Position numbers and translations under genes: made by a program. Positions 33,699 to 49,987 of a DNA stretch of 64,000 nucleotides are shown in pieces. A model generated the notes under the pieces. The model did no database searches. It was not told the origin of the DNA and saw nothing but the letters and a program-made list of their open reading frames with translations. How positions within the stretch are numbered: the first letter of the stretch is position 1; the number at the start of each line of letters is the position of its first letter. Source of the DNA: Candidatus Bathyarchaeota archaeon (lineage in GTDB: Archaea > Thermoproteota > Bathyarchaeia > Bathyarchaeales > Bathycorpusculaceae); contig OY970340.1 of assembly GCA_963717465.1 (NCBI GenBank), forward strand, positions 704,001-768,000, read 5' to 3'.

Positions 33699-35281
33699 TT
33701 ACCTTTTCACTTCTTTTGCCTGTGTTCCTTTTAGTAGTTTGGATAGAAGTTCCATTTTAAGCTGTGTTTGGACGTCAAAATTGCCTCTGTAAGCTTCATG
33801 GTCTTTGCCTAAATCATAGCACGTCTTGTCATCAATGTCAATAATTATTCCTGGCATACCTGCCTCTTCAAGTTCATCTTGATGTTTGCAGTAGAATGCT
33901 TCGCAACAGCAGCCGATAAAGCCCTTTGCGCCTGCTTTCTTTTTCTCAGATAGCGTGTCTCATTAAATGCTCGAAGTTTTGGATTGTAATTACGTCTTTT
34001 AGCCCAAGTTCTTCAGCCCATTTGTACACTTGCCCAACTGAGCATCGTCCGCATTTATTACAGCCTTCTATCCACTTGTACTTGCAATCGCTGGGTTTGG
34101 CACAGTAGGGTAAAAGGAGAAAATCATACCCGTTTTGCAATAGTTTTTTGTATTGGTTAGTTACGGGGTAAATGTGATTTGCATCTGGTAAACTGATTCC
34201 GAATGTTTCAAATGATGTTTTGTCGATTGCTTGAAGAATTAGCTGCAGAATTATTTCAGGTGTCACACCGGGCAAGCTGAATTTTTTTTTGAGCAAAGAA
34301 GTCAAAGACAATTTTCCTGATTTCATATGCGTCGCAGTGGACAAATTTCATGGTTGCTTCAAAGTCTAATATCGCTTTTGATGGGAAAACGAAGAAGTCA
34401 CCCGTTACAAGGATGCTCTTTATGATGTTGGTTCCTCTGTCAATCGCTAGTGAAACTCGAATTAGTCCTCCAGGAGTTTTAGCTATGGCGTGAACGACTG
34501 CTGCTTCGTTTAATGGTCTGCGGTCAAGGTAAATCCATTCTTCCGACTTAAAGTATGGCAATTTTTTTTCAAAAAGTTTCTTTTCGGCAATTTTTAGTTT
34601 GCCTGGTTCAAGTTTAATGTTTAATGTATGCTCAAAGCTTTTTTTTATGGCGGTTTTTATTTCTTCCAAGTTTGAGCTGTGTCCAAGTTCGCGGTCTATC
34701 CAAGTTACTCTTTCTTTGGCTGATTTTAGCTCCTTATCCTTCAGTTTTGCAATTGGGATTCTTAAGGCTCGAATCATCATCTCAACGTTGAAGTCTATAA
34801 GAAGCGTTCCTTGAAACAGGAAAGCATCTTCTCTTTCGACTCCTCCTGTCCCTGAAATTTTTCTTCCTTTTACTTCTATGTCGTTTTTAGGGCGGTAAGT
34901 TGCTGGGATGCCGATTTTTTTTAATGCTTCAATTGCACCCTTGCACATTAACTGAAAAAGCCTTTCAACGTTAGTGTATTCAGGTACCGATTTGCGCAAT
35001 GCTACGATTTCCCATCCGAGCACTTTTTCGTCAAAAAGCAGTGCGCCTCCTCCTGTTAATCTTCGATTGAAATCAATGTTGTTGCTTTTGACGTAGTCAA
35101 GGCGGACTTCATGTTCAATGTCTTGATGATAACCCACTAAGGCTGCTGGAGGACTGAATTGGAGAAAGCGAAATGTGTTCGGGGCGATATGTTTTGATAC
35201 TGCTTCCAGAATTATGTCATCAAGTGTCATGTTTTCTGCGGCAGTCATATGTCCCGTGTCTAAAAATCGCCATTTCTTCAC
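33699..35281 (-). CDS. lplA: lipoate-protein ligase A (LplAB-like) with C-terminal Cys-rich DUF116-like domain, frameshifted
   Basis: WRFLDTG, RRLTGGGA, RPKNDI, RKISGTG, FQGTLL, KTPGGLI, TGDFF; tail LPYCAKP..C..C..C..C and IGCCCEAF to stop at 33699. Confidence 0.88.
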
Positions 35282-36330
35282 CTTACAAGCCGCTCCGTCG
35301 ATGAATCGATTATTTCTTGCTTGTTCTTTAAAGATTCAATATCCTGCCAGATAAGCGAGCAGCATTCTTCGTGGAAAATTGTTTTTAGTCCTGCTTTCAT
35401 GGCTGTTTTAGGGGCTTCTTCGCTTGGGTAAGCGATGCCGTTTATTCCTGCCTTAATCGCCAGCACGTCAGTTTTAACCCTGTGAATCCCTCCAGGTCTT
35501 GCGCATCCTAATAGTATTGGCTTATTAGGCATAAGATGTCTGCAAGCCAAAATCACACGAGCAACATCTAAGGCAGAAGGAGGTTTCACTTGCTCCATTG
35601 ACGTGTTTTTTAGCGGTTTTAAGGCGACAATAACTACTGCAGTGGGGTTTGTTTCCGATATTATTTGAACAGCTTTTTTTTCGCCTTTAAGTTTGCCATA
35701 ATGTATCCCAACCACTATATGGGGCACCGTTGGAATGTTGTTTTGCTGTAATGAAATAAGCGATTGCTTAAAAACATCTATGTCGCAATCAAGATGGTAA
35801 ACGTCCTTAATTGTTTCTTCATTACCTAGCACATCCAGCATTGCCGCATCAATATGTGCTTTGGCTAATGCTTTGGCGAGTGAAGGCGAAATAAGCCCAG
35901 TGTGAACAACAACCTTTAGGTCGAGTTCCTCTTTTACTCGCTTTATTGTGGGAACAAATTCTGTTAGTGGAACAGCGCCTTCCTTTTGGCTTCCGCCGCT
36001 TATAAGACACCCTTGACCTCCAAGTTGTTTAATTTTTAGGCATTGATTGAATAATTCTTGAGGATTAGTGGCGGGAATCATGCTTTCAAGCAATGATTTT
36101 TTGCAGTGTTCACAGTTTAGTTGACAATTTTTTCCGGTAACCGAAATTGCAGGAAAACTTTGGCAGTTCTTAGTTTGGTAGACCTGTGTGTCATACTGTA
36201 CCATGCTTGGAATGTAAAAGTGGATTTCGTCTGAAAAATTTTTACACCTTAAGGCAATGGCTTCATCAAATAGAGTCTTCAGACGGTTGAAGGGTTCGTT
36301 GAAACATTGGTTAATGGTTTTTTCAGCCAA
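35278..36330 (-). CDS. lipS1: radical SAM lipoyl synthase component LipS1 (Thermococcus TK2109-type)
   Basis: CQLNCEHC radical SAM motif plus LGCARP and EECC motifs recalled as characteristic of LipS1; adjacent to ligase. Confidence 0.82.
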   Translation of the reverse strand: MAEKTINQCFNEPFNRLKTLFDEAIALRCKNFSDEIHFYIPSMVQYDTQVYQTKNCQSFPAISVTGKNCQLNCEHCKKSLLESMIPATNPQELFNQCLKIKQLGGQGCLISGGSQKEGAVPLTEFVPTIKRVKEELDLKVVVHTGLISPSLAKALAKAHIDAAMLDVLGNEETIKDVYHLDCDIDVFKQSLISLQQNNIPTVPHIVVGIHYGKLKGEKKAVQIISETNPTAVVIVALKPLKNTSMEQVKPPSALDVARVILACRHLMPNKPILLGCARPGGIHRVKTDVLAIKAGINGIAYPSEEAPKTAMKAGLKTIFHEECCSLIWQDIESLKNKQEIIDSSTERLVR

Positions 36331-36361
36331 ATACGACCCATCTTTTAGCAGAATGCCTGAT

Positions 36362-37481
36362 TTATGACAAGCAACTTATGCAGTTGCTGCATCCGAGTCC
36401 TTCCGCCCATTCTTTAACTGGGACATCGGAGTAGTCCAGCAGTTGTTTTCTAATTACTACTATGTCTTCGTTGTTAGGCGTGAAGGGATAATTTCGCATT
36501 TCACCCATGTAAGCTTGATACGGAGTGTAGTCTCCAAAGGGTCTGTTGCAAGCGTTATCTTTGGTTTTACTGGCACATCCCGATGTCATAAAGGGTAATC
36601 CACCCTTTATTTCATCGTTCAAGATTTCTTTGTCGACATTGTAGTTTGTAACTTTGCCTTCATCATTAAACGAGATCTGGTTTATAGTGATTTTTCCTTT
36701 ATTAATGAGATATCGCGCAAGCTGTACCCGACGATAATGCCCAATGGGTGGTTGAAGACAATCCTGCATTTGCGACTCTTCTTCTGCGAAGAACGAGAAC
36801 AGGTGAGTTGTCGCCCCGAGGTCATACGCGTTTTGGATTGCTTGTATCATTTGCTTTTCAGTTTCGCCTAAACCGACAATTAAGTGTGTTCCGACGTTGT
36901 ATTGCCCGAAGATTTCTACTGTATCTTTAACTATTTTCCAGTAGTGTTCCCATTTATGTGGGCCTTTGACGCCTTTGCCTCGGAACTTATCAAACAATTC
37001 CGGAGTGACAGCGTCAATGGCTATTCCTATCTTGTCTGAGCCTGCATCTTTGAGTTTAGTTAGCCAGTCTTTGTTAATAATTGTAGGCGCTACCAATGTG
37101 GAAATAGCATCCGTTTTTTTCCGTAATTGTTTAACAATTTTTAGTGTATCTTCTTTTGCTCTCACGTTTGTAACCATCGAAACACAAACCCGTTCAATAT
37201 GAGAGCATCCTTTACTACCCATTCTTTCCAAGATTTCGTTCAAGCTTACGGTTGGCCAGTCAACCCTGATGAAACTTTGCTGATTCCACTTCTTAGAATT
37301 ATGTCGTCGCGCCTGATAACCCGCAGTATGCGCATTTTCCAACGCAGCCTTCGTTGTAGGTCAGTAATAGGTTGAGGCAGTAGAGTTTTGCATCTCGAAA
37401 GAATTTGCCTTCTGCTAAGCCCATTGTCATGGCTGCAGCATGGCTTACGCGCACGTATTCTGGGGATTCGTAACTATTCAA
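36362..37481 (-). CDS. lipS2: radical SAM lipoyl synthase component LipS2 (TK2248-type), one frameshift near 37310
   Basis: SPEYVRVS.AAA.TMG, CVGKCAYC, FIRVDWP, HLIVGLGETE, TSGC..ACNRP motif. Confidence 0.82.
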
Positions 37482-37954
37482 TTCTTGGCACCTTTCAGAA
37501 TTGTAATATCCTGTGATATATGAACTGGTGCTCCATTCTGCAGGGCTCTTAATGCGAAACTTGAGTTCTTTGTTATTTCAACGCATCTTTGGGCTCTAGC
37601 TTTGTCGGCTTCATTTGCTGTTTCAACATGAAAGACGGCGTCGACGCCGATTAATTCATAGCCGTTGGCGCCTAGTTTGACTACGGCGTTGACTGTAACT
37701 TTTAGGCTTTTAATTTTAAGTCTCATTCTCTCCTTCGTGTACAGGAAAGTTGTTAGTAAACAACCTCCAATTGACGAGAAGAAGAGTGCACATGGGCTGA
37801 CAAATTTGCCTTTTCCACCAAACTCAGTAGGCCTGTCTAAGCTAAACTCATGAACAGGGCTTCCTTGATTATCGCCAACATGTACTTTTCCACCGCTTTT
37901 TCCATCCCACTCAATCTCAGCAGAATACTCCAAACTATTCGGGATGGAAATCAA
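37478..37954 (-). CDS. OsmC/Ohr-family protein
   Basis: DRP.EFGG.G...SP..LF.SS.GGCL.TT motif; overlaps the lipS2 start (ATGA). Confidence 0.8.
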   Translation of the reverse strand: MISIPNSLEYSAEIEWDGKSGGKVHVGDNQGSPVHEFSLDRPTEFGGKGKFVSPCALFFSSIGGCLLTTFLYTKERMRLKIKSLKVTVNAVVKLGANGYELIGVDAVFHVETANEADKARAQRCVEITKNSSFALRALQNGAPVHISQDITILKGAKN

Positions 37955-38016
37955 AAACTTCAGCCTTTAAAAAACTAAAATTATTGGTTGTGTTTTACTG
38001 GAAAATATAAGAGGGA

Positions 38017-38445
38017 TTATTTTTTGACTCTTGTTTCAATTTCTTTTTTGTACCATTCAACGGATGCTTCGCCATGTACCAAGGCTTCCATTTCTTCAGG
38101 CTTTGTTGGCTTTAATATGGCTATCCAGCCTTCACCGTAAGGGTCATCGTTAATCAATTTTGGTGTTGCTCGTAGTTTTGCATTTACTTCATCAACTGTG
38201 CCTGTAACTGGAGATTCGACTGCACCAACCCATTTTTGGCTTTCAATGTTTGCGACTGCCTTCCCTTGTTCGATTGCTGTGCCTTTTGGTTTAGCGCGGA
38301 CAAACATCAATTGTTGAGCAAGCTTTTGTCCTAAATCAGTTATTCCAACTCTTATTCTGCCGTCTGGTTCTTTTTTTGCCCAAGTTACTCCTCTTGGCCA
38401 ATAGTTAAGGTCTTCTTTAAGTTCATATTCTCCAACTTTAACCAT
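38017..38445 (-). CDS. gcvH: lipoyl-carrier protein (GcvH/LbpA-like)
   Basis: RVGITD, IESQKWVG lipoyl-lysine site, SPVTGTV.EVN, INDDPYGEGWI. Confidence 0.9.
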   Translation of the reverse strand: MVKVGEYELKEDLNYWPRGVTWAKKEPDGRIRVGITDLGQKLAQQLMFVRAKPKGTAIEQGKAVANIESQKWVGAVESPVTGTVDEVNAKLRATPKLINDDPYGEGWIAILKPTKPEEMEALVHGEASVEWYKKEIETRVKK

Positions 38446-39485: not shown

Positions 39486-39968
39486 TCAAAAGCGAGGTTG
39501 AAATAAACCATCGTCAATGTTATTTTTAATATCCGCTGGTGGTGGCTGTGGCTTTACAGGTGGTAGACCTGGAAACTCTTTTCTTATGGTCATCCATGCT
39601 ATCTTTAATGGTCTTTCCATGCTCTCTAGAAAGAATACGACGTCATCGTTTCCACCTAAAGTTACCAGTATCTCGCTGTTTATTAACAGGGCAACCATGT
39701 AAGACTCTCTGCCTTCCAAGCAATGTTTCAGTATCTGCACTGCTACATATTCCATAATCAGTGTTGGCTCTTTTACTGCTCCTTTGTGTACTGTTATTTT
39801 GTCTTGATGTGCTTCAATTTGCAAGTTGGCTTTAGGGCAATCTGCAAACCGGATTTCAACAACCATTTCACAGCCTTTAAAGGCTTCAAGAGCTGCAGGG
39901 TCTACACTAGCAATCGTGAATAATCGATGCATGAAGTCCAATAGCTTTGGTTCAATATCAGTTGACAT
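39486..39968 (-). CDS. SCP2-like small protein, paralog of 43820-44227
   Basis: aligns by eye with the 43820 protein over its whole length; pattern resembles SCP2 sterol-carrier fold (fold inferred). Confidence 0.65.
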   Translation of the reverse strand: MSTDIEPKLLDFMHRLFTIASVDPAALEAFKGCEMVVEIRFADCPKANLQIEAHQDKITVHKGAVKEPTLIMEYVAVQILKHCLEGRESYMVALLINSEILVTLGGNDDVVFFLESMERPLKIAWMTIRKEFPGLPPVKPQPPPADIKNNIDDGLFQPRF

Positions 39969-40064
39969 ATCATGTCCTCAACACTTTGATATTTTAACTA
40001 AGTACAATAAAAAGGTAATAAAAAAATTTAACTTATTTATGATAGTCTTTCAGGCTTTCCAAGA

Positions 40065-41093
40065 TTACTTCTTCGGTACGTACTCTTTAGCTGCTTCGAC
40101 GAAAGCTTTTACGTTCGCAAGTGGGACTACTGATGAGATTCCGCATCCTGGCTCCAGCAAATCAGCGCCTGCCTGTAATGCATTCATTGCTTCAGCTTTT
40201 ACTTCAGCCGGTGTACCAAAGACTAGTGTCTTCTTTGAGGATACGTTGCCTAAGATTTTAACGTCACCGACTAAGTTCTTAATGTTAGCAATGTTTACAG
40301 CTTCTTCTATGCTTATGCCATCGAACCCTGAATCGACCATTTCAGGAATTAGTTTTTCTGTTCGCCCGCAAATGTGCAAGACTCTAATTCCGCCTAAGTT
40401 GTCAGTTAAATCGAGTAGTACGGGTTTTACAAATTTCTTGTACCAATCTACGCTTATCATTTCAAGTGACGCCATTGGCTCAGCAATACATACAATGTCA
40501 GCACCTGCTTGAAATTGCGCTTTTGCATATTGCAAAACGAAATCGTATCCAAATTTAGTGTATGCCTTGATGTTGTCAGGAGATCTTACAATCCATTTCA
40601 AGAAAGTTTCTATTCCTGGTAACTCTCCGGCAATTGTGAACGGTCCAACTACGTGACTTGCAATTGGTAGATAATCGCCTACTTGTTTCCTTAATAGTCT
40701 GATGGCTTCCAGCACAACGGGAATTCTGCCTAATTCGAGAATGTTTTCAGGCATTTTTAAGTCTTCGGGTTTCGCAAAGGGATGTCCTTTTACTGCAGGA
40801 AGATGCTCGGGGCTATCGAACCATTTGACCTCGCATCCTAATGCTTCAGCTTCTACCACGAAATCGAAGGGAACCCTGACACATTCGACGCCAGCTAATT
40901 CATAGCTAGCTATAGCTAGTTTTGCCATCTTTTCCGCGTTTTTGTGGGCGTCTGGCCAGAATATTCCAGTAGCGTTTTGCATATCAACGTTAACTGTTCC
41001 TCCACATCCCGCAACTGAAGTCGCTGGTATCCTATCAACAGGCCCTCCTAACAGGGCAGCCATAACTCGTCGTTTAGGGCTAAATTTTTTCAA
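40065..41093 (-). CDS. mtaA: MtaA/CmuA-family methylcobamide:thiol methyltransferase (MT2, UROD superfamily)
   Basis: WPDAH..AEKMAKLA, VRVPFD..VEAEALG, GRIPVVLEAI, VGPFT, Zn ligands LHICG and PGCGI. Confidence 0.9.
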   Translation of the reverse strand: MKKFSPKRRVMAALLGGPVDRIPATSVAGCGGTVNVDMQNATGIFWPDAHKNAEKMAKLAIASYELAGVECVRVPFDFVVEAEALGCEVKWFDSPEHLPAVKGHPFAKPEDLKMPENILELGRIPVVLEAIRLLRKQVGDYLPIASHVVGPFTIAGELPGIETFLKWIVRSPDNIKAYTKFGYDFVLQYAKAQFQAGADIVCIAEPMASLEMISVDWYKKFVKPVLLDLTDNLGGIRVLHICGRTEKLIPEMVDSGFDGISIEEAVNIANIKNLVGDVKILGNVSSKKTLVFGTPAEVKAEAMNALQAGADLLEPGCGISSVVPLANVKAFVEAAKEYVPKK

Positions 41094-41230
41094 TTACTTT
41101 CCTCCTTTTCTTTCAAAATTAATCTTGCGTACCTAATAAGATTTCCGTAAAGAAGGCAAAACTATCCTGTGAGCAAAATAATATGGCGGAAAGATGTTTT
41201 TCAGGCAAAGTTCATGGGTTTGTTGTTTTA

Positions 41231-41260
41231 CAAGTTTTCAAATGTTCAAGTTTTCAAAGT
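41231..41260. repeat. direct repeat CAAGTTTTCAAA x2 (16-bp period) in the divergent mtaA/mttB intergenic region
   Basis: copies at 41231-41242 and 41247-41258. Confidence 0.55.
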
Positions 41261-41476
41261 TTGCTGGCGAAGTTGCGCTAAGTTAAGAAATAGAATTGTT
41301 ACTTGCTATAGTGTGCATCGTTAAACTTGTTTGGCGTACCCTGCAGCATGTTCTATTGATTGTGCGGGTGAGAAAAGCTTGTTAAAAGTTTTTTTGAAGC
41401 ATTTATAAGGCTTTTGTCGACTTATCGCAAAAATATAAATACCTGCAAGCCCAACCAAGGTATTAGGTGAATAAAA

Positions 41477-43048
41477 TTGAGACTTGGAATTAATATTCCT
41501 AAACGATTCGCTCCACCTATAGCAACAGACGAGGAGCTTATGAAAATCCATCAAGCCGCAATGTATCTATTACAGAACGTTGGAATTGGAGGAGTCACTC
41601 CTAAACTACAGAAATTGTTCAAGGATCTAGGCTGTACTGTTATTGACGAGAAGAAAGGCGTTGTTACGATACCTCAACATCTTGGAATGGAAGGCATAAA
41701 TGCGATACCAACTACGAACATTTTGCCCGGTAGGGTACCCGCAAACGACATTGTCTTGGAAGCTGGAAGCCGAAGATGTTTTGCTGGGGCTTTCGGAATC
41801 ATGGCCCTTTACGCAAAATTTAATCCGAGCAACCGAAACTTTGAGTATCGAGACGGAGTTGATGCTGACAACTGGAGAGAACAGAAGGTTACTGAGTACT
41901 TCCCAGAATTCGACATGGTAAGCCCAATTTACCTGCCTATGGACTTGGCAGAGGCAGGCTTGCCAGTGGACACTCATGACCTCAACAGCACCATTCAGTG
42001 CACTACCAAGCATATTTGGCACATTGACGCAATTGACCATATTGACTGCTACACTGAGTTAGCCGCTGAAGTTCTCGGAGGAATGGACGAAGTTGCGAAG
42101 AGACCATTCATTACTAACCATGGAGACACACCAGGCATCGTTTACGGTCAAAAGACCAGTGACAGAATGTACGCAACTGTAGAAGGCTGGCAAAAAGGCA
42201 GGCCTCTGATGATAGACTTCACTGATGTTTGCATACCTGGGTTCCAGGGTCCCCTTAGCTTAACAGGAGCTTACGCAGTGACCGTTGCTTGCGACATTTC
42301 AATGGCAGTAGGTTTAGCTCTAGGAATGAACGGAGTTGGAAAAGGGCGTATCCCCGACATGACCTACGCACTAGTCATGGCCATGGACGCATACACACAA
42401 CAGTTAGGATGCATGACTGAATTTACCAAGTGTCTAGCTCTACACGCGAACTTCTGGCACCGCAACTACCCAACACCAAAAGCTACCATGTGGCCAGGTG
42501 TAACCATTGGAGGTAACATGGGTAATGCAGATACACAAGGTGGTATGTTTACTTACCATTTGATGAACGCCATGCAGAGCGGTACTGATCAGTTCGGATG
42601 TTGGCCCACAACCGTAGGTCCAAACGGAATTAGGATGGCAAGTCACACCATCAACGCTGAATGTATCCGAATGTTTACACACATGTTCCAAGACCTTGAC
42701 TTCGGCGCTTCAAACTTCGCGTATGAAAAATGGCTCAAGAAAGGTCCAAGAGGCGACTTCATGAAGGAACCTGAAACTCTCAAAGGAATGGCAGACATTG
42801 GTTTCATGCCCATGAGACACGGTTACGGACTATATGAAACAAGGCAATGGCTACGATGGATTGAAGACAGACTCGGCTTAGATGACCGCGCAGAAGCTTT
42901 GACTGCAAAGATTATAAAGGAATATCCAGCTCCACTACCACCAAAAGACGTAGCTGACAAAATGAATGCAATAATCACTAAATACGACAAGGTACTACAA
43001 ATCGGCGGCTATCAAGTAGACGTAAAGGGAACCGGAGCAAGATTCTAA
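41477..43048 (+). CDS. highly divergent trimethylamine methyltransferase (MttB/COG5598) family protein, no pyrrolysine codon
   Basis: EL.KIHQAA..LL.NVG, TTKH, PGFQGPLSLTGA, D.QGG, GP.GDF..PETL, W..W......DRA, PLP.DV..K...II; followed by a corrinoid protein gene. Confidence 0.8.
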   Translation: MRLGINIPKRFAPPIATDEELMKIHQAAMYLLQNVGIGGVTPKLQKLFKDLGCTVIDEKKGVVTIPQHLGMEGINAIPTTNILPGRVPANDIVLEAGSRRCFAGAFGIMALYAKFNPSNRNFEYRDGVDADNWREQKVTEYFPEFDMVSPIYLPMDLAEAGLPVDTHDLNSTIQCTTKHIWHIDAIDHIDCYTELAAEVLGGMDEVAKRPFITNHGDTPGIVYGQKTSDRMYATVEGWQKGRPLMIDFTDVCIPGFQGPLSLTGAYAVTVACDISMAVGLALGMNGVGKGRIPDMTYALVMAMDAYTQQLGCMTEFTKCLALHANFWHRNYPTPKATMWPGVTIGGNMGNADTQGGMFTYHLMNAMQSGTDQFGCWPTTVGPNGIRMASHTINAECIRMFTHMFQDLDFGASNFAYEKWLKKGPRGDFMKEPETLKGMADIGFMPMRHGYGLYETRQWLRWIEDRLGLDDRAEALTAKIIKEYPAPLPPKDVADKMNAIITKYDKVLQIGGYQVDVKGTGARF

Positions 43049-43073
43049 GGAGACAAAAAAGAAGGAATCATTT

Positions 43074-43727
43074 ATGGTAACTAAAGCTGAAGTACTTGAA
43101 CACCTCGCAAAAGCAATCATTGACTATGATGAGGAAAAGGCTGTTGCAGCGGCAAAAGAAGCAGTAGAAAACAAGCTGGAGATTATGGACGCTATCGAGA
43201 AAGGCCTATCAGTTGGCATCAAAGAAGTTGGTGACCGCTTTGGCCGCTTCGAATACCCACTACCCTACGTAATCATGGCTGCAAACGCGATGACTGCTGC
43301 AGTTAACTACCTCAAAGAAAAGTATCCCAAAGACAAGCTGCCAAAGGCAAAAGGCATAGTCGTAATTGGCACGGCTTTCGGCGACATCCACAGCATCGGC
43401 AAGAACTTGATTGCTGACATGTTGCGTACCGATGGCTTTGACGTTTATGACTTAGGTGAAGAAATTCCAACCGAGGACTACGTCAAGAAGGCTGAAGAGG
43501 TCCATGCTGATATTGTTGCGATGGGCGCTTTGATGACTAGCAGCATGTCTTATCAGAGAGCGCTGGTTGATACGCTTGTTGAGCGTGGTCTTCGTAAGAA
43601 GTATAAGGTTCTTGTTGGCGGTACTCCGATGACTGATGATTTCTGCAAACGCATTAAGGCTGATACTTGGGGTGCGGACTGCGGAGACGCAATCAAGAAG
43701 GCAAGAATGCTCGTAGGCAAAACTTAA
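43074..43727 (+). CDS. methyltransferase cognate corrinoid protein (MttC/MtbC-like)
   Basis: cap domain (AIE.GLS.G...VG.RF) and B12-binding GDIHSIGKN, GALMT, VGG. Confidence 0.93.
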   Translation: MVTKAEVLEHLAKAIIDYDEEKAVAAAKEAVENKLEIMDAIEKGLSVGIKEVGDRFGRFEYPLPYVIMAANAMTAAVNYLKEKYPKDKLPKAKGIVVIGTAFGDIHSIGKNLIADMLRTDGFDVYDLGEEIPTEDYVKKAEEVHADIVAMGALMTSSMSYQRALVDTLVERGLRKKYKVLVGGTPMTDDFCKRIKADTWGADCGDAIKKARMLVGKT

Positions 43728-43819
43728 ACAAACTGCAAAACCGAAAAACAAAAATATCTATCCTCTTTTTCTTTTCTCTGTATAAAATCTAAAATTTAAA
43801 ATGAAAGGTGGAAAATGTT

Positions 43820-44227
43820 ATGTCTTATGAAGATAAGTTGATGAATTTCGCGTATAAGTTGTATTCTAAGCTTGCTGATGATCCTGCTATTATTGATGCG
43901 TGTAAGGATCAGGAGAATGACATGATTGTTGAACTAAGTATTGGTGATGTTCCTGATGTTGTTTGGCAGATTGGTTCGAAGGGTAAGAAGTGGGTTGTGA
44001 ATAAGGGTAGTGTTGATGAGGCTAATGCGGCTATTCAGTATCTTAAGCTTAAATACTTGAATGATTGGTGGTCTGGTAAGATGGGTGCTGACGCGTTGTT
44101 TTCGCAAGGAGCCATGTCACTGTTGTCTGGTGACCTGGGTGATCTGGGTTTCATGGCGCCAGTTGAAGAGCCATTAAAGAAAGTTTATCAGCAGATTAAA
44201 GGCGAATTTCCAGGTCTACCAGAGTAG
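43820..44227 (+). CDS. SCP2-like small protein, paralog of 39486-39968
   Basis: V.KG....A.A.I......L.DWWSGK.....LFSQG.M...GDLG pattern resembling SCP2; shared EFPGLP C-terminus. Confidence 0.7.
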   Translation: MSYEDKLMNFAYKLYSKLADDPAIIDACKDQENDMIVELSIGDVPDVVWQIGSKGKKWVVNKGSVDEANAAIQYLKLKYLNDWWSGKMGADALFSQGAMSLLSGDLGDLGFMAPVEEPLKKVYQQIKGEFPGLPE

Positions 44228-44295: not shown

Positions 44296-44877
44296 CTATT
44301 TCTTAAGGTCAAAACCTATAATAACAGTGCCTAGTTTTCGGTTAAAGATGTCTATTCCCATCCTGCTTTTTTGATAATTATCAGAATGGGGCGTTGGGGA
44401 CCCTACTATAGCATTGCAGGCGCCTGAGACCTTTTCAACTTCGGGACATGGCAAAGGTGAGAAGACCACTTTGGAACGCTCTATAAGCATTTCCTCAGGT
44501 TTAGGCATCCTATCTTTGTAGAGCGCAATGTTCCCCATAAAGATGGCACTCTTATTCTTTTTTAATTCTTCCCGTTTGACAGGGTCAGGAATATCCTCTC
44601 CTATCACTTTTCCTTTCCACTCAACGATCATCATTGGTACAGGAGGCCATTCAAAAACCATATCCGTTACGCAAGCAACTACGACTTCCCGCTTTAGGAC
44701 TTCCTTAACCCCACGGTTATCGCCAAGCCCAAGCCCCATCAATACCTCTCCCTCAGACAGCGCTTCAAGCTCCAAAATCTTCTGTCTATCCTCATTAGTG
44801 AGAACTAATACTTGACGGATACCTTTGAGACTTTTGAGTCTTGATAATACTTCGTTAACTACTTCCTGATGCGACAA
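44296..44877 (-). CDS. hypothetical protein within the methyltransferase cluster
   Basis: 193-aa ORF with plausible globular composition; no family securely recognised. Confidence 0.7.
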   Translation of the reverse strand: MSHQEVVNEVLSRLKSLKGIRQVLVLTNEDRQKILELEALSEGEVLMGLGLGDNRGVKEVLKREVVVACVTDMVFEWPPVPMMIVEWKGKVIGEDIPDPVKREELKKNKSAIFMGNIALYKDRMPKPEEMLIERSKVVFSPLPCPEVEKVSGACNAIVGSPTPHSDNYQKSRMGIDIFNRKLGTVIIGFDLKK

Positions 44878-45025: not shown

Positions 45026-45958
45026 TTAAGACTGCTTGCTTGTTTGTTTTGGCATGATGATTTGGAGTTGATTGGATGGTGTCAATGTTTTGAGTTTTAC
45101 ATGTTCGATTTCGAAGACAACTGAACCTTTTAGTCCCGCATGAAGTCGCCACGTTCTCTTGTCGAAACTTGGAACAAAACCTTGTCGCCATAAATCTACT
45201 ACCGATTGAAAAGGATAACCTGGAAGGTTTAGTTCTTCAGTGTATTTCCATTTTTTGATTTCTGGAAAGAGTGAACCTATGTAAGCCCAGAATGAATCCC
45301 CGACTGAGGCCCTGATTGTATCCCACACTGAGGCTCTGACTGAGGTTCCAACTGCCTCCCAGACTTGAGCCCAGCCCGAAGACATAACTGAATCCCAAAT
45401 TGAATCCCAGAACTCATCCCCGAGTGAAGCCTTGACTGAATCCCAGACTGGATACCATGTTGCTTCCCAGATCGAATCCCCGATTGATGCCCCAACTGAA
45501 TCTCCAACTGAACCCCCGATTGAATCCCAGACTGAATCATAGATCAAAACCCAATTTTGAAGAAGCATTACTTGCTCGTTGGTCACTTTCTTAGGTTCGA
45601 GTTTAAACGGGTGAACCGGTTTACACGCTTCCAAATAATTAAAACCGAACAAATCATTAATTTTTTCCTGCGGAATCTCCTCAACTATGGTCAATTCTTT
45701 GAAACCACATTTCTCTGTATCCTCGACTACTGGTTTTCCTTCAACCAAAAATAACCGAAAAGGAATTTTCGTGACAATAAATATGTCCAAAGGCCTTTTG
45801 CAAGCATGTAACACGCTGTCTGAACAGAGAACTGGCTTAGCTTTATAATTAGGTACTTTTATAATTCGCCCAATATTCTCCGCATAATTAATCGTGTTTC
45901 CACTATGCAAGTCCCATCCTTGAAGGTTGGCTGCTTTATAATAATGGTTGTTCCCCAT
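45026..45958 (-). CDS. hypothetical protein with tetrapeptide (W/G/R)-(D/A)-S-(V/I) repeats, possibly phage-derived
   Basis: ATG with GGGG/GGA upstream; about 20 imperfect tetrad repeats between an N-terminal domain (YYKA...LC...LHAC) and a C-terminal domain. Confidence 0.75.
   Translation of the reverse strand: MGNNHYYKAANLQGWDLHSGNTINYAENIGRIIKVPNYKAKPVLCSDSVLHACKRPLDIFIVTKIPFRLFLVEGKPVVEDTEKCGFKELTIVEEIPQEKINDLFGFNYLEACKPVHPFKLEPKKVTNEQVMLLQNWVLIYDSVWDSIGGSVGDSVGASIGDSIWEATWYPVWDSVKASLGDEFWDSIWDSVMSSGWAQVWEAVGTSVRASVWDTIRASVGDSFWAYIGSLFPEIKKWKYTEELNLPGYPFQSVVDLWRQGFVPSFDKRTWRLHAGLKGSVVFEIEHVKLKTLTPSNQLQIIMPKQTSKQS
45280..45545 (-). repeat. degenerate 12-bp coding tandem repeat
   Basis: recurring + strand units such as GAATCCCAGACT, GAATCCCCGATT and GAATCCCAAATT. 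Confidence 0.8.
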
Positions 45959-46316: not shown

Positions 46317-47297
46317 ATGTTTAAGTTTAAGGCTTCACAAAAAATCTTCGAAATAGGCAATATGCGTATTGGCGGGCAGCCTGGTGAGCTTCCGAAAGTG
46401 TTGTTCGGAAGTATTTTTTACAGCAAACATAAAATCGTGAAGGATGCGAAAAAAGGGGTCTTTGACAGAAGAAAAGCAGAGATTTTGATAAACAAGCAAG
46501 AAGAACTTTCTGACCTTACCGGCAACCCCTGCGGAATAGATGTTGTATGCACCTCGCTTGAATCAGCTTGCGCACTAATCGATTTTGTCGCAGAAGCAAC
46601 TGATGTGCCGATTTCTACTGATTGCTGGGCTCCAGAGATTAAGATCAAAGTTTTGCGTCACGTTGCTGAGGTTGGTTTGTCACAAAGAATTATTTATAAT
46701 AGTATAATGTCTGTCCCGTTTCCTAAATAAGAAGAACTCAACGCTATTAGAGAATCTAAAGTTAAGGCAGCAATAATTTTATGCTATAACTTGAAGGATC
46801 GGTCAGCGAGCGGGGTTCTGTCTTTACTGAGAGGCACGGAAGAGCAAAGAGGCCTGTTGGAGATTGCACAAGAGGCAGGAATAGAAAAACCGTTGGTAGA
46901 CGCAACCATATTTACATATATTCCGAGCATAGGCGTAGGCGCTAGGGCCTGCTTTATGGTGAAAGACGAATTTGGGCTTCCAGTAGGCGGTTCACCTGGA
47001 AATGCAACAACCGTTTGGAAAAAACCAAAGGAGCTTGGACAAGACATCTATAAAGCCTGTGAAGCAGCTTCAGAAGTCATACCCTTAGCCTTAGGCGCAG
47101 ACTATCTACACTATGGACCAATCGAATCAGCTCCCTGGGTATTTCCAGCATGCGCTGGAATAGACGCAATGATTGCCATGGCAGCACAAACAGAATTCGG
47201 AACAAAGACCCTGACTACTACACATCCATTGAACAAGCTATTCCCAGATATCGTTGAAAAGTTAGAAAATAAAAAAAATCGGTTAGAAAAGCACTGA
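46317..47297 (+). CDS. mtrH: MtrH-like methylcorrinoid:tetrahydromethanopterin methyltransferase with in-frame TAA at 46728-46730
   Basis: MFKF...QKIFEIG...IGGQPGELP.VL.GSIFY..H, IIYNS, then in frame past the stop EELNAIRESKVKAAIILCYN...GLPVG..GADYL.YGPIE. Confidence 0.88.
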
Positions 47298-47391
47298 AAA
47301 CGCAATAATGATGCACCAATGGATGTCATGACAAAGTTTTTATTATTGAAAAGGAATTAACCCTTTCAAAATTTACTGGGTAGATTAAAGT

Positions 47392-48039
47392 ATGAGTGAA
47401 AATGAAATGCTAAAAAAACTTTCTGATGCGGTTGATGCTGGTGACACGGAAAAGGCTCAGAATGCAGCAAAAGAGTCTCTGGCTAAAGGTGTCCCACCAT
47501 TGAAGGCAATCCTAAATGGACTAGCAGAAGGAATGAGAATAGTTGGTGAAAAGTATGAAAGACAAGAATATTTCTTGCCTGATATGCTTTCGTCAGCAGA
47601 CGCCATGTACGCCGGTCTAGACATTTTAACTCCACAAATTCCTGCATCCGAAAAGACAACTAAAGGAAAGGTACTTCTCGGCGTTGTTGAAGGCGACGTA
47701 CATGACATTGGAAAAAACATCGTTAAAATTATGCTAACAGCTTCTGGATACGAAGTCGTGGACTTAGGCAAAGATGTACCAACACCAGAATTCATTAACA
47801 AAGCTAAGAGTGAAGGCGCGCAAATACTAGCGATGTCAACACTTATGACACCAACACTCATGAACATGAAGGCTGTAGAAGACAAACTAAAGGAGGCAGG
47901 CTTGAAAGGCAAAGTGAAAACAATCATAGGCGGCGGTTCAGTAAGTGAAGAATGGAGAGCAAAAATAGGCTCAGACGCATATGGCAAGGATTCCACAGAA
48001 GCCGTTAACAAAGTTAAGCAGTTAATAGATAGCATGTAG
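47392..48039 (+). CDS. second methyltransferase corrinoid protein
   Basis: GL.EGM..VG.KYE..EYFLPD cap; GVVEGDVHDIGKN, STLMTPT, IIGGG. Confidence 0.94.
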   Translation: MSENEMLKKLSDAVDAGDTEKAQNAAKESLAKGVPPLKAILNGLAEGMRIVGEKYERQEYFLPDMLSSADAMYAGLDILTPQIPASEKTTKGKVLLGVVEGDVHDIGKNIVKIMLTASGYEVVDLGKDVPTPEFINKAKSEGAQILAMSTLMTPTLMNMKAVEDKLKEAGLKGKVKTIIGGGSVSEEWRAKIGSDAYGKDSTEAVNKVKQLIDSM

Positions 48040-48044
48040 AGGTT

Positions 48045-49987
48045 ATGAAAGAAGAAAGAACAAAAAAAAGTTCATTGCCGTTTGCCGAAATCGAAATAGT
48101 TTTTCAACCTTATGGCAAACGAGCAAAATTTCCCCCCGGCATCGTAATTATGGATGCAGGTAAGACTTTAGGTGTAGATTTATCTTCACTTTGTTCTGGA
48201 AAAGGCACTTGTGGAAAATGCAAAATTAAGGTCCAAAAAGGGGCTGACGGATTAAGTCCTCTTACAGAAAAAGAACTCAAGCATCTGTCTGAAGAGGAAC
48301 TTAACGCATCCTTTAGGTTAGCATGCCAAGCTCAATTAACTACGCCTTCGGTAATTTATGTTCCATTGATTAGAAGAGTTGGCGTACAAAGGCTGCAAAC
48401 AGAAGGGCTTGATGTACCAGTAAAACCTAACCCATTTGTAAGAAAATACTTTTTGCAAATGCCTCAGCCGACGCTTCATGACAATAGATCCGATGAAGAT
48501 AGACTCCTTGATTCATTAACTAGGCAGTTTGGCCTATCTAACCTTAAAATCGATTTTGAAGCTGCAAAAAGCCTTCCCATTAACCTTCGAAAAGAAAACT
48601 ACGCTGCGACCGCAGTAATCTGGAACAATGAAATTAGAGCTGTTGAACCAGGAGATACGTCTGATAGATGCTATGGGCTTGCTGAGATATTGGGACCACG
48701 AAGTTGGCTGGCTTCTTGATGAATCTTAAAACAGGCAAAGTTGTTTCTGTCGCCGCTAGAATGAACCCTCAAATCCCATTTGGCGAAGATGTCATGTCGC
48801 GGATAACTTATGCCATGATGGGTGAATGGAAAGCCCTTAAAGAGCTTCAAGCAGCTGTTGTTTCGGGAATTAACGAAATAATCGAGGAAAGCTGCAAAAA
48901 AGCTAATGTGAAAATTGAGGAAATATACGAACTCAACTTCGTGGGTAATACGGCAATGCAACTTTTATTTCTCGGCATCTGGCCTCAATATGTTGGATTT
49001 TCCCCTTATCCACCAGTATTACGAAAAGGCGTTGACGTAAACGCTGCAAACTTGGGATTAAAATCTCATCCAAACGCGAATGCACACTTCGTCTCAATCA
49101 TCGGAGGCTTCGTGGGAGCAGATAGCGTTGCAGATATTTTGGCATCAAAAATTTTTGAGTCAGACAAAATTATGATGACCATTGACGTGGGTACAAACAC
49201 TGAGATTCATATAGGAGACAAAGACTATTGCATGGCTGACTCTTGCGCATCTGGACCTGCCTTTGAAGGAATGGAAATAAAATTCGGTATGAGGGCAGCT
49301 ACAGGGTCCATCGAAAAAATAAGCATAGACCCGGACACCTTGGACCTTAACTACAGAACAATAGGGAACGTTCCTGCAGTTGGTATATGCGGCTCAGCAC
49401 TTATAGACGCTCCAGCTGAGTTACTAAAGGCTGGCATAATTAATTTAAGAGGCAACTTTGTCCCTGAAATGACGGCAAAAACCAAAAGATTAAGAAAGGG
49501 ACCTGACGGCGGGGAATTTATTGTTGCAAAGAAGAATGAAACAGGTATAGATACAGACATCGTGATAACTTTAGCAGATATCAGAAAGCTTCAGCAAGCA
49601 AAAGCTGCCATTCATACTGGTGCTGAAATTCTGATGAAAGCAATGAACATAACTGAAAAAGACATTAGTAAACTGGTAATTGCAGGTGCATTTGGAAACT
49701 ATATCGACGCCGAAAACGCAAGAACCATCGGTATGTACCCTGAAATTCCCTATGAAAGAATCGAGTTCTGCGGAAACCTTGCTGGCACAGGCTCCAGGCT
49801 ATCTCTAATTTCAAAAGAGATGAGAGACCAAACTGAAAGAATAAGTGAAAAAGTAAAATATTACGAGCTTGCAGCGGACCCCAACTTCCAAGCTGAATAC
49901 GTGAAGTCTCTGTACTTACCCTACGCTGACCTGAATAAGTATCCAAGCACTAAAGAATTGCTGAAAAGGCTAGGTCGAGTTCCGTAA
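48045..49987 (+). CDS. ATP-dependent reductive activator of corrinoid proteins (RACo/RACE, DUF4445 ASKHA), one frameshift near 48685
   Basis: N-terminal [2Fe-2S] CSGKGTCGKC...RLACQ; DIGTT split by the indel; NPQ..FGEDVMSRI, DVGTNTE, SCASGPAFEG, GICGS, AGAFG. Confidence 0.9.

Follow-up and report, generated by a model that had tools for sequence, protein, structure and literature searches.

A 64,000-nucleotide stretch of the genome of a Candidatus Bathyarchaeota archaeon (contig OY970340.1, positions 704,001 to 768,000; hereafter the window) carries two diverging groups of corrinoid methyltransferase genes, each of which ends in a gene for a small protein that is predicted to adopt the SCP2 fold. 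Coordinates below are those of the window unless they are given as G000:C1, where G000 is the genome carrying the window. On the minus strand, SCP2a (P0001; 39486..39968) follows a gene for an MtaA-like methylcobamide:coenzyme M methyltransferase (40065..41093). On the plus strand, beyond a divergent intergenic region of 383 bp (41094..41476), the gene for a non-pyrrolysine methyltransferase of the MttB superfamily (41477..43048) is followed by that of its cognate corrinoid protein (43074..43727) and by SCP2b (P0002; 43820..44227), the same five positions and orientations that an earlier note on this DNA had laid out. The mttB-like, corrinoid, and SCP2b genes form a cassette that is repeated in the genome. 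We propose, at chances that we judge to be about even, that the SCP2-fold protein is a soluble carrier: it would bind a methylated compound of low water solubility, which an MttB paralogue would demethylate, feeding methanogenesis.

Kinship and predicted fold of the two small proteins

SCP2a and SCP2b are paralogous, as had been proposed from motifs aligned by eye: a BLASTP comparison yielded 42 identities over 133 positions (32%; E = 6e-22), and all of these motifs are present, including EFPGLP. SCP2b comprises 135 residues when its start is placed at the ATG common to its homologues, and SCP2a comprises 160, of which about 135 make up the SCP2 fold and 25 a low-confidence tail. Neither protein has a match in Pfam or NCBIfam: the gathering cut-off of PF02036 was not reached by P0001 or P0002, and the best E value was 0.15 among 18 family members. 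Single-sequence searches of the Protein Data Bank (PDB) with the small proteins gave nothing useful, the rows for interferon-gamma and amylase being chance matches.

Even though the PF02036 cut-off was not reached, the structural models bear out the SCP2-like fold that the earlier note had suggested. The SCP2b model is confident (pLDDT, the predicted local distance difference test score, 94.6) and drew 35 matches from Foldseek at E <= 0.001, those listed being without exception of SCP2 fold; it aligned to SCP2 structures with Z 11.8 and a root-mean-square deviation of 2.8 over 112 aligned positions, and to the UbiT/UbiJ-type structure 6h6p with Z 9.8 at 12% identity. In the structure comparison, Eis acetyltransferases likewise matched the SCP2b fold. 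The SCP2a model is weaker (pLDDT 81; best Foldseek E 3.5e-3); its first ten matches were all SCP2 structures, and its elements follow the same order as in the SCP2 fold. A profile of the wider family reached rabbit SCP2 (1c44) at E 3.5e-4, and a profile of 18 relatives drew nine matches from 1.84 billion representative proteins, one of which, the 1,165-residue repeat protein P0023, was dropped as spurious. Bridging homologues point the same way: P0020, 46% identical, is named “putative sterol carrier protein” at its source, P0021 lies narrowly over the Pfam SCP2 cut-off (22 vs 21.3 bits), and P0024 matches Pfam SCP2 at E 2e-14. An atlas search found SCP2-bearing clusters at 0.93. An SCP2 fold is thus supported for both small proteins at the level of models and profiles.

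We then compared the predicted SCP2b with ligand-binding features of known SCP2 proteins. When the cavity-lining positions of an insect SCP2 (PMC4674756) were mapped onto the sequence via hidden Markov model (HMM) alignments, all 11 mappable positions in SCP2b proved hydrophobic, three of them as larger aromatics. Human SCP2 has a basic portal for anionic head groups formed by K98, K100, and K110 (PMC12636295). By the same kind of mapping, these residues correspond to A98, S100, and F111 in SCP2b, so that the basic portal is missing, and both small proteins are acidic, with net charges of −7 for SCP2b and −3 for SCP2a. An acidic protein without a basic portal argues against a fatty-acid or acyl-CoA ligand.

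The repeated cassette and its methyltransferases

The cassette of mttB-like, corrinoid, and SCP2b genes occurs five times in the genome, at about 120k, 748k, 1208k, 2488k, and 2814k, and in five of five cases SCP2b lies directly behind the corrinoid gene. Together with SCP2a, which is present in a single copy, these five SCP2b genes make up the six genome members of the small-protein family. There are ten mttB loci in total, nine of which are close paralogues (the eight intact ones being 67-81% identical); five of the nine come with corrinoid and SCP2b genes, two with a corrinoid gene only, and two alone. Among the seven corrinoid proteins, identity is 94-100%, and the codon differences between their genes number 39-84 synonymous versus 0-13 non-synonymous. 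Judged by these codon counts, the cassette copies are true paralogues under purifying selection; an assembly artefact was ruled out on the grounds that most differences between copies are synonymous and that the flanks differ from copy to copy.

SCP2b itself shows a pattern of divergence that tracks neither MttB nor the corrinoid protein. Three cassettes have SCP2b proteins that are 99-100% identical, and identity falls to 58-67% in the remaining two. At the DNA level, the three near-identical genes agree at 96-100%, above the identity of their neighbours, which suggests that they were recently homogenised. SCP2a forms its own branch in the tree, and an mtaA neighbour is present at the window cassette only. 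The window locus is special only in that the cassette stands beside methyltransferase 2 (MT2) and activator genes and that a diverged SCP2a stands beside mtaA. A dedicated SCP2a/SCP2b pair or heterodimer, as the earlier note had envisaged, is not supported, in view of five SCP2b genes to one SCP2a, an mtaA gene by one cassette only, and 20 further SCP2-like genes in the genome. Upstream of four to five other mttB genes we found a common promoter motif that is absent upstream of the window copy, and related Lrp/AsnC-like regulators adjoin most mttB cassettes. The divergent intergenic region of the window holds a direct repeat, read by eye, of CAAGTTTTCAAA at 41231-41242 and 41247-41258, with a period of 16 bp.

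Among the window proteins, family scores were E 1.4e-74 for URO-D/MtaA, E 4.2e-17 for MTTB, and E 1.4e-21 for B12-binding. The MttB-like protein, the candidate methyltransferase 1 (MT1), scores 61.8 bits against PF06253 (cut-off 25), and the corrinoid gene follows 25 bp downstream. Its gene is an open frame of 523 codons with no in-frame UAG and gives 113.5 bits versus 525 for TIGR02369; no PylS over cut-off was found in the genome, which is 88% complete by markers. The protein matches MtgB structures at E 9e-9 and is 23-30% identical to other class members. For comparison we used the MtgB pocket residues Y97, Arg312, His348, and Phe356, of which Arg312 is kept in MtcB, MtpB, MthB, and MtyB (PMC13080624). 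Mapped by hand over a weak HMM stretch (E 5e-6), His348 falls on C375, which is variable among the paralogues, and Phe356 on P382, so that both appear to be without counterparts. In the same weak alignment, Arg312 falls on V342 or A336 depending on the register, with no Arg in either and the conserved K335 adjacent in one, while an aromatic is retained at the Y97 position (F106). In a comparison of seven paralogues, positions 103, 342, 343, 347, 358, 373, and 378 ranked among the most variable; these positions match the MtgB pocket, and their residues are mostly small or uncharged. The pattern fits an MttB set that diversified on related substrates lacking a carboxylate. The acyl-carnitine and betaine lipids that had been put forward as substrates are disfavoured by the apparent lack of counterparts of His348 and Phe356, and probably of Arg312, in this weak alignment and by the missing basic portal of SCP2b. 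The most likely substrate class would instead be bulky compounds that are neutral or cationic and resemble steroids, terpenoids, or alkaloids, rather than carboxylate-bearing betaines.

The MtaA-like protein scores 367 bits against PRK06252 (cut-off 244) and also passes the subfamily cut-off of TIGR01463, and it remains under the MtaA equivalog cut-off NF040654 (358 vs 400 bits). It matches Methanosarcina mazei MtaA (4ay7) over its full length at E 4.6e-83, with the HxC motif and the distal Cys aligned (H240-x-C242 and C317). In MtaA-type enzymes the HxC...C motif binds zinc; MT1 enzymes of the URO-D fold exist as well, and the motif does not exclude an MT1 role. Because Mcr is encoded in the genome, the simplest role for the MtaA-like protein would be that of an MT2 to coenzyme M. 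The mcrBDCGA genes lie at G000:C1 ~1,660,000-1,665,000 (L028 15047-19847), with mcrB in two frames, and their neighbours are hdr-like genes, a corrinoid gene, MtrH, RACo, and three further MtaA-like genes. Within the class, McrA turned up in 3 of 401 genomes, and within the genus in none of 39; the active-site motifs of the McrA encoded here are presumably canonical. With these genes at hand, the chain from MT1 through the corrinoid protein to MT2 that the earlier note had drawn is plausible.

SCP2 genes across the genome and in other assemblies

The genome is rich in SCP2 genes. It contains ten Pfam SCP2 genes; of 60 genus relatives, most (54) have a single such gene, two have a pair, one has three, and three lack any. 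The local profile and the small-protein family together bring the SCP2-like genes to 26. Of these 26, 17 have a corrinoid gene within 5 kb, versus 5.7% of 1,024 small open reading frames (ORFs), and all six members of the small-protein family lie at most 3.7 kb from one. Separate SCP2 clades adjoin three types of MT1, namely, MttB, an MtmB-like type, and an unassigned 420-residue family. In the islands around the sister cassettes we observed genes for 3-ketosteroid-dehydrogenase-like and OYE/BaiCD-like flavoproteins (best NCBIfam matches, all under cut-off), a CrtC lipocalin, a CoxG/START protein, short-chain dehydrogenases (SDRs), and molybdoenzymes.

Several side observations concern the wider set. 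The genome has at least six MtmB-like loci and 22 ORFs that match the corrinoid-protein profile. A module of SCP2, GcvH-like, corrinoid, and 420-residue proteins is present six times (L015, L020, L023, L024, L026, and L031), most copies also carrying a TrmB regulator, and the same SCP2/GcvH-like module occurs twice in another genome, G393 (L061 3806-15550), followed there by an LplA-like gene. The molybdoenzyme genes that adjoin sister cassettes at L001, L002, L003, L013, and L036 are split at the same place into ORFs of 150 and 606 residues. Two identical SCP2 proteins of another clade are encoded at G000:C1 2,309,603 and 2,613,315 (L017 and L022): one gene adjoins ETF/Hdr-like genes, and the other stands directly behind genes for DUF2112, a BcrAD-type ATPase, and DUF2102, which we take to be methanogenesis markers.

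Close members of the small-protein family turned up in only 1 of 401 class genomes, to which a handful of metagenome proteins can be added. The MttB branch has matches at E <= 1e-10 in 36 of 401 class genomes, none of them above 30% identity outside G000. Links in four other assemblies were inferred from proteins of equal source and equal contig size, rather than from gene order on the DNA. By this measure, a 7,288 bp JGI contig would carry the SCP2 protein P0020 together with the MttB protein P0036 (59%), a 7,276 bp ENA contig an SCP2a orthologue with MtaA and a corrinoid protein, a 183,114 bp NCBI contig SCP2a, SCP2b, and MtaA, and a 1,093 bp JGI contig a corrinoid protein with SCP2b. Five further MttB relatives (48-49%) share no equal-size contig with a listed small protein. 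The link between the small proteins and methyltransferase genes that the earlier note had seen at one locus thus recurs beyond chance, in five cassettes and, by such matching, in four other assemblies. In four scans of genome and metagenome contigs for related loci, no relative was confirmed, and the two remote class matches, in G048 and G382, were set aside as ordinary SCP2 genes, their 1.5-kb flanks being free of corrinoid and MttB genes.

The genes that flank the locus include further methyltransferase components. An adjacent block on the plus strand (46317..49987) encodes an MtrH/MtgA-like protein (two ORFs), a second corrinoid protein, and a RACo-type corrinoid activator (two ORFs), which are probably shared downstream machinery. 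The MtrH-like (46317-47297) and RACo (48045-49987) genes are each split in two ORFs and their paralogues at ~1,652-1,657k are whole; the splits may stem from sequencing error or from real decay. Between the two methyltransferase blocks lies a 310-residue ORF (45026-45958, minus strand) that contains a low-complexity stretch of repeated W-D-S type and matches DUF7666 weakly. A 193-residue ORF (44296-44877, minus strand) is convergent with SCP2b and has no match in Pfam or NCBIfam and no usable atlas match. To the left of SCP2a, we found a nitroreductase-family gene and, 1 kb away, a lipoate assembly cluster of LplA, LipS1, LipS2-like, OsmC-like, and GcvH genes (34256-38445), the LipS2-like gene scoring under its cut-off in the family search.

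Possible roles of the SCP2-fold proteins

Known systems offer partial parallels. UbiJ and UbiT are SCP2 accessory factors of ubiquinone biosynthesis, which are proposed to hold hydrophobic intermediates for soluble enzymes (PMC6747719; PDB 6h6n-6h6p). They resemble SCP2a and SCP2b as stand-alone SCP2 folds encoded with pathway enzymes, and they differ in being biosynthetic and bacterial, whereas the proteins described here would have corrinoid MT1/MT2 partners in an archaeon and show 12% identity. Methyltransferases of the ubiquinone pathway use S-adenosylmethionine. MtgB, MtcB, MtpB, MtyB, and MthB are likewise non-pyrrolysine MT1 enzymes of the MttB family whose genes adjoin that of a cognate corrinoid protein and have MT2 and activator genes in the vicinity (PMC13080624), but the window protein is distant kin, without counterparts of His348 and Phe356 and probably of Arg312, it belongs to nine paralogues that have one corrinoid sequence in common, and its own cassette ends in an SCP2 gene. 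Cobalamin-dependent steroid demethylation is carried out by AbeABC of Phosphitispora sp. TUW77 and EmtAB of Denitratisoma, where a methyl group is removed from a hydrophobic ring compound and multiple gene copies and a ketosteroid dehydrogenase are found (PMC11912376). The likeness in this genome lies in the MtmB-like and KstD-like genes beside the sister cassettes, but AbeA and EmtA are related to MtmB and the window MT1 to MttB (MTTB family), the acceptor there is tetrahydrofolate, and the main text of that paper has no mention of “SCP” or “sterol carrier” (PMC11912376). The MtaA-like protein, finally, shares with M. mazei MtaA a full-length match, the HxC motif and distal Cys, and a host with Mcr; it differs in lying under the equivalog cut-off, in having three more paralogues beside mcr, and in the SCP2 gene behind it. 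By analogy, the cassette would work like UbiJ/UbiT and would parallel AbeABC, and is a member of neither. A literature search of mostly open-access main texts found no paper joining SCP2 to MttB or corrinoid methyltransferases, in keeping with the earlier note, which knew of no described system with this architecture.

In the carrier reading that we prefer, the SCP2 protein would take up the hydrophobic substrate, or its demethylated product, and come into contact with MttB, as its fold and context suggest. The MttB paralogue would transfer the methyl group to Co(I) of the corrinoid protein, which is the established chemistry of the family. From there, the divergently transcribed MtaA would pass it to coenzyme M, and the Mcr of this genome would reduce it to methane; alternatively, the neighbouring MtrH-like enzyme would hand it to tetrahydromethanopterin. 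The RACo activator would re-reduce the corrinoid. Specificity would come from the MttB paralogues, with the corrinoid protein and SCP2b as shared, nearly interchangeable parts. A more far-reaching version, which we regard as possible but doubtful, sees a four-component corrinoid system in which SCP2 is the dedicated substrate-delivery subunit of a new MttB branch: methane would then be made from the methyl groups of hydrophobic natural products, the nine paralogues between them serving a series of substrates, with MtaA and Mcr fed from a single common corrinoid protein.

A number of observations weigh against a carrier role. The SCP2b residues Y74, W83, and W84 are larger than their counterparts in the cavity, which they may constrict or fill. 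Four of the nine close mttB genes have no gene of the small-protein family behind them. Three cassettes whose MttB proteins are 71-72% identical have SCP2b proteins at 99-100%, and the closest MttB pair of the five cassettes (81%) has SCP2b at only 67%; with divergence that does not follow MttB, SCP2b is not a carrier matched to one enzyme. The count of 17 in 26 near corrinoid genes is inflated by duplication, and 9 of the 20 other SCP2-like genes lie more than 5 kb from any corrinoid gene. No steroid-type redox gene stands next to the cassette within the window. The four contig links are indirect and three of them come from close relatives, and among 19 distant mttB loci, with flanks of 1.5 kb, none has an SCP2 gene. 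The transcription signals also count here: both small genes lie behind gaps of 92-96 bp that hold a T-tract, in which 9 of 10 bases are T, and after it a TATA-like box, at 39990..40026 (minus strand) between mtaA and SCP2a and at 43766..43788 (plus strand) between the corrinoid gene and SCP2b, each a possible terminator followed by a separate promoter. The 25-bp gap between mttB and the corrinoid gene has no T-tract, and the two corrinoid genes without SCP2b have similar T-tracts downstream. From these signals, the small genes may be separate or attenuated transcription units, and their co-transcription with the upstream neighbours is doubtful. A scan for sigma-70 promoters and hairpins stayed at chance level and is unsuited to archaea.

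Some of these observations would be accommodated by SCP2-fold subunits that bind no ligand and instead attach to the corrinoid protein, or to its complex with MT1, aiding its shuttling to MtaA or the activator, with SCP2a as the MtaA-side version. The invariant bulky aromatics could then fill the cavity, Eis acetyltransferases match the fold too, SCP2b always sits directly behind the corrinoid gene, and SCP2a is found with mtaA on two other contigs. SCP2b is also conserved like the corrinoid protein and unlike MttB, yet this parallel fails in two cassettes, where SCP2b drops to 58-67% while the corrinoid proteins stay at 94-100%, so that SCP2b does not track the corrinoid protein. Since, in addition, two corrinoid copies lack SCP2b, both small proteins are acidic (net −7 and −3), and characterised MttB/MtgB systems are not known to need such a subunit (PMC13080624), we consider docking without a ligand unlikely. 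The possible promoters of the small genes, and the homogenised SCP2b DNA of three cassettes, which exceeds that of the neighbours and fits recent copying, would also suit general carriers that serve redox enzymes or product removal in hydrophobic-compound catabolism over many islands and that were copied along with the cassette, with no contact to a methyltransferase. Several of the 26 SCP2-like genes indeed lie by molybdoenzymes, SDR/AOR, OYE, or alcohol dehydrogenase genes and far from corrinoid genes. General carriage leaves it unexplained, however, that none of the six family members is more than 3.7 kb from a corrinoid gene, five of them standing directly behind one, that a divergent relative apparently has SCP2 and MttB on one 7.3-kb contig, and that the window cassette has two SCP2 genes without such redox enzymes alongside; we hold it to be improbable.

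The lipoate cluster 1 kb from SCP2a raises one more option, namely, that the SCP2-fold proteins carry octanoate or lipoate for the LplA-LipS1-LipS2-GcvH genes, or a corrinoid lower ligand from the nitroreductase-family protein. The six other modules in the genome and the two in G393 that pair SCP2 with GcvH-like and corrinoid genes, and an LplA-like gene near the 2814k cassette, are in line with it. But the basic portal with which human SCP2 meets fatty-acid carboxylates is absent from the acidic SCP2b, the GcvH-linked SCP2 genes belong to a different clade, and no lipoate gene was seen near three of the five cassettes, which together make a role in supplying cofactor precursors very improbable.

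The characterised non-pyrrolysine MttB proteins cited in PMC13080624 take small soluble quaternary amines. Substrates have been established for only a minority of this family, and the linkage of one branch to lipid-carrier genes suggests substrates of another class. The reach of the system looks narrow, given the 1 of 401 class genomes and handful of metagenome proteins in which close members occur. The small, easily expressed SCP2 proteins offer a direct route to the substrate via ligand pull-down. The methane metabolism of the class Bathyarchaeia has been described as unresolved (PMC12694404). If methyl groups released by the MttB paralogues do reach Mcr, then the substrates of methanogenesis would widen to hydrophobic organic matter.

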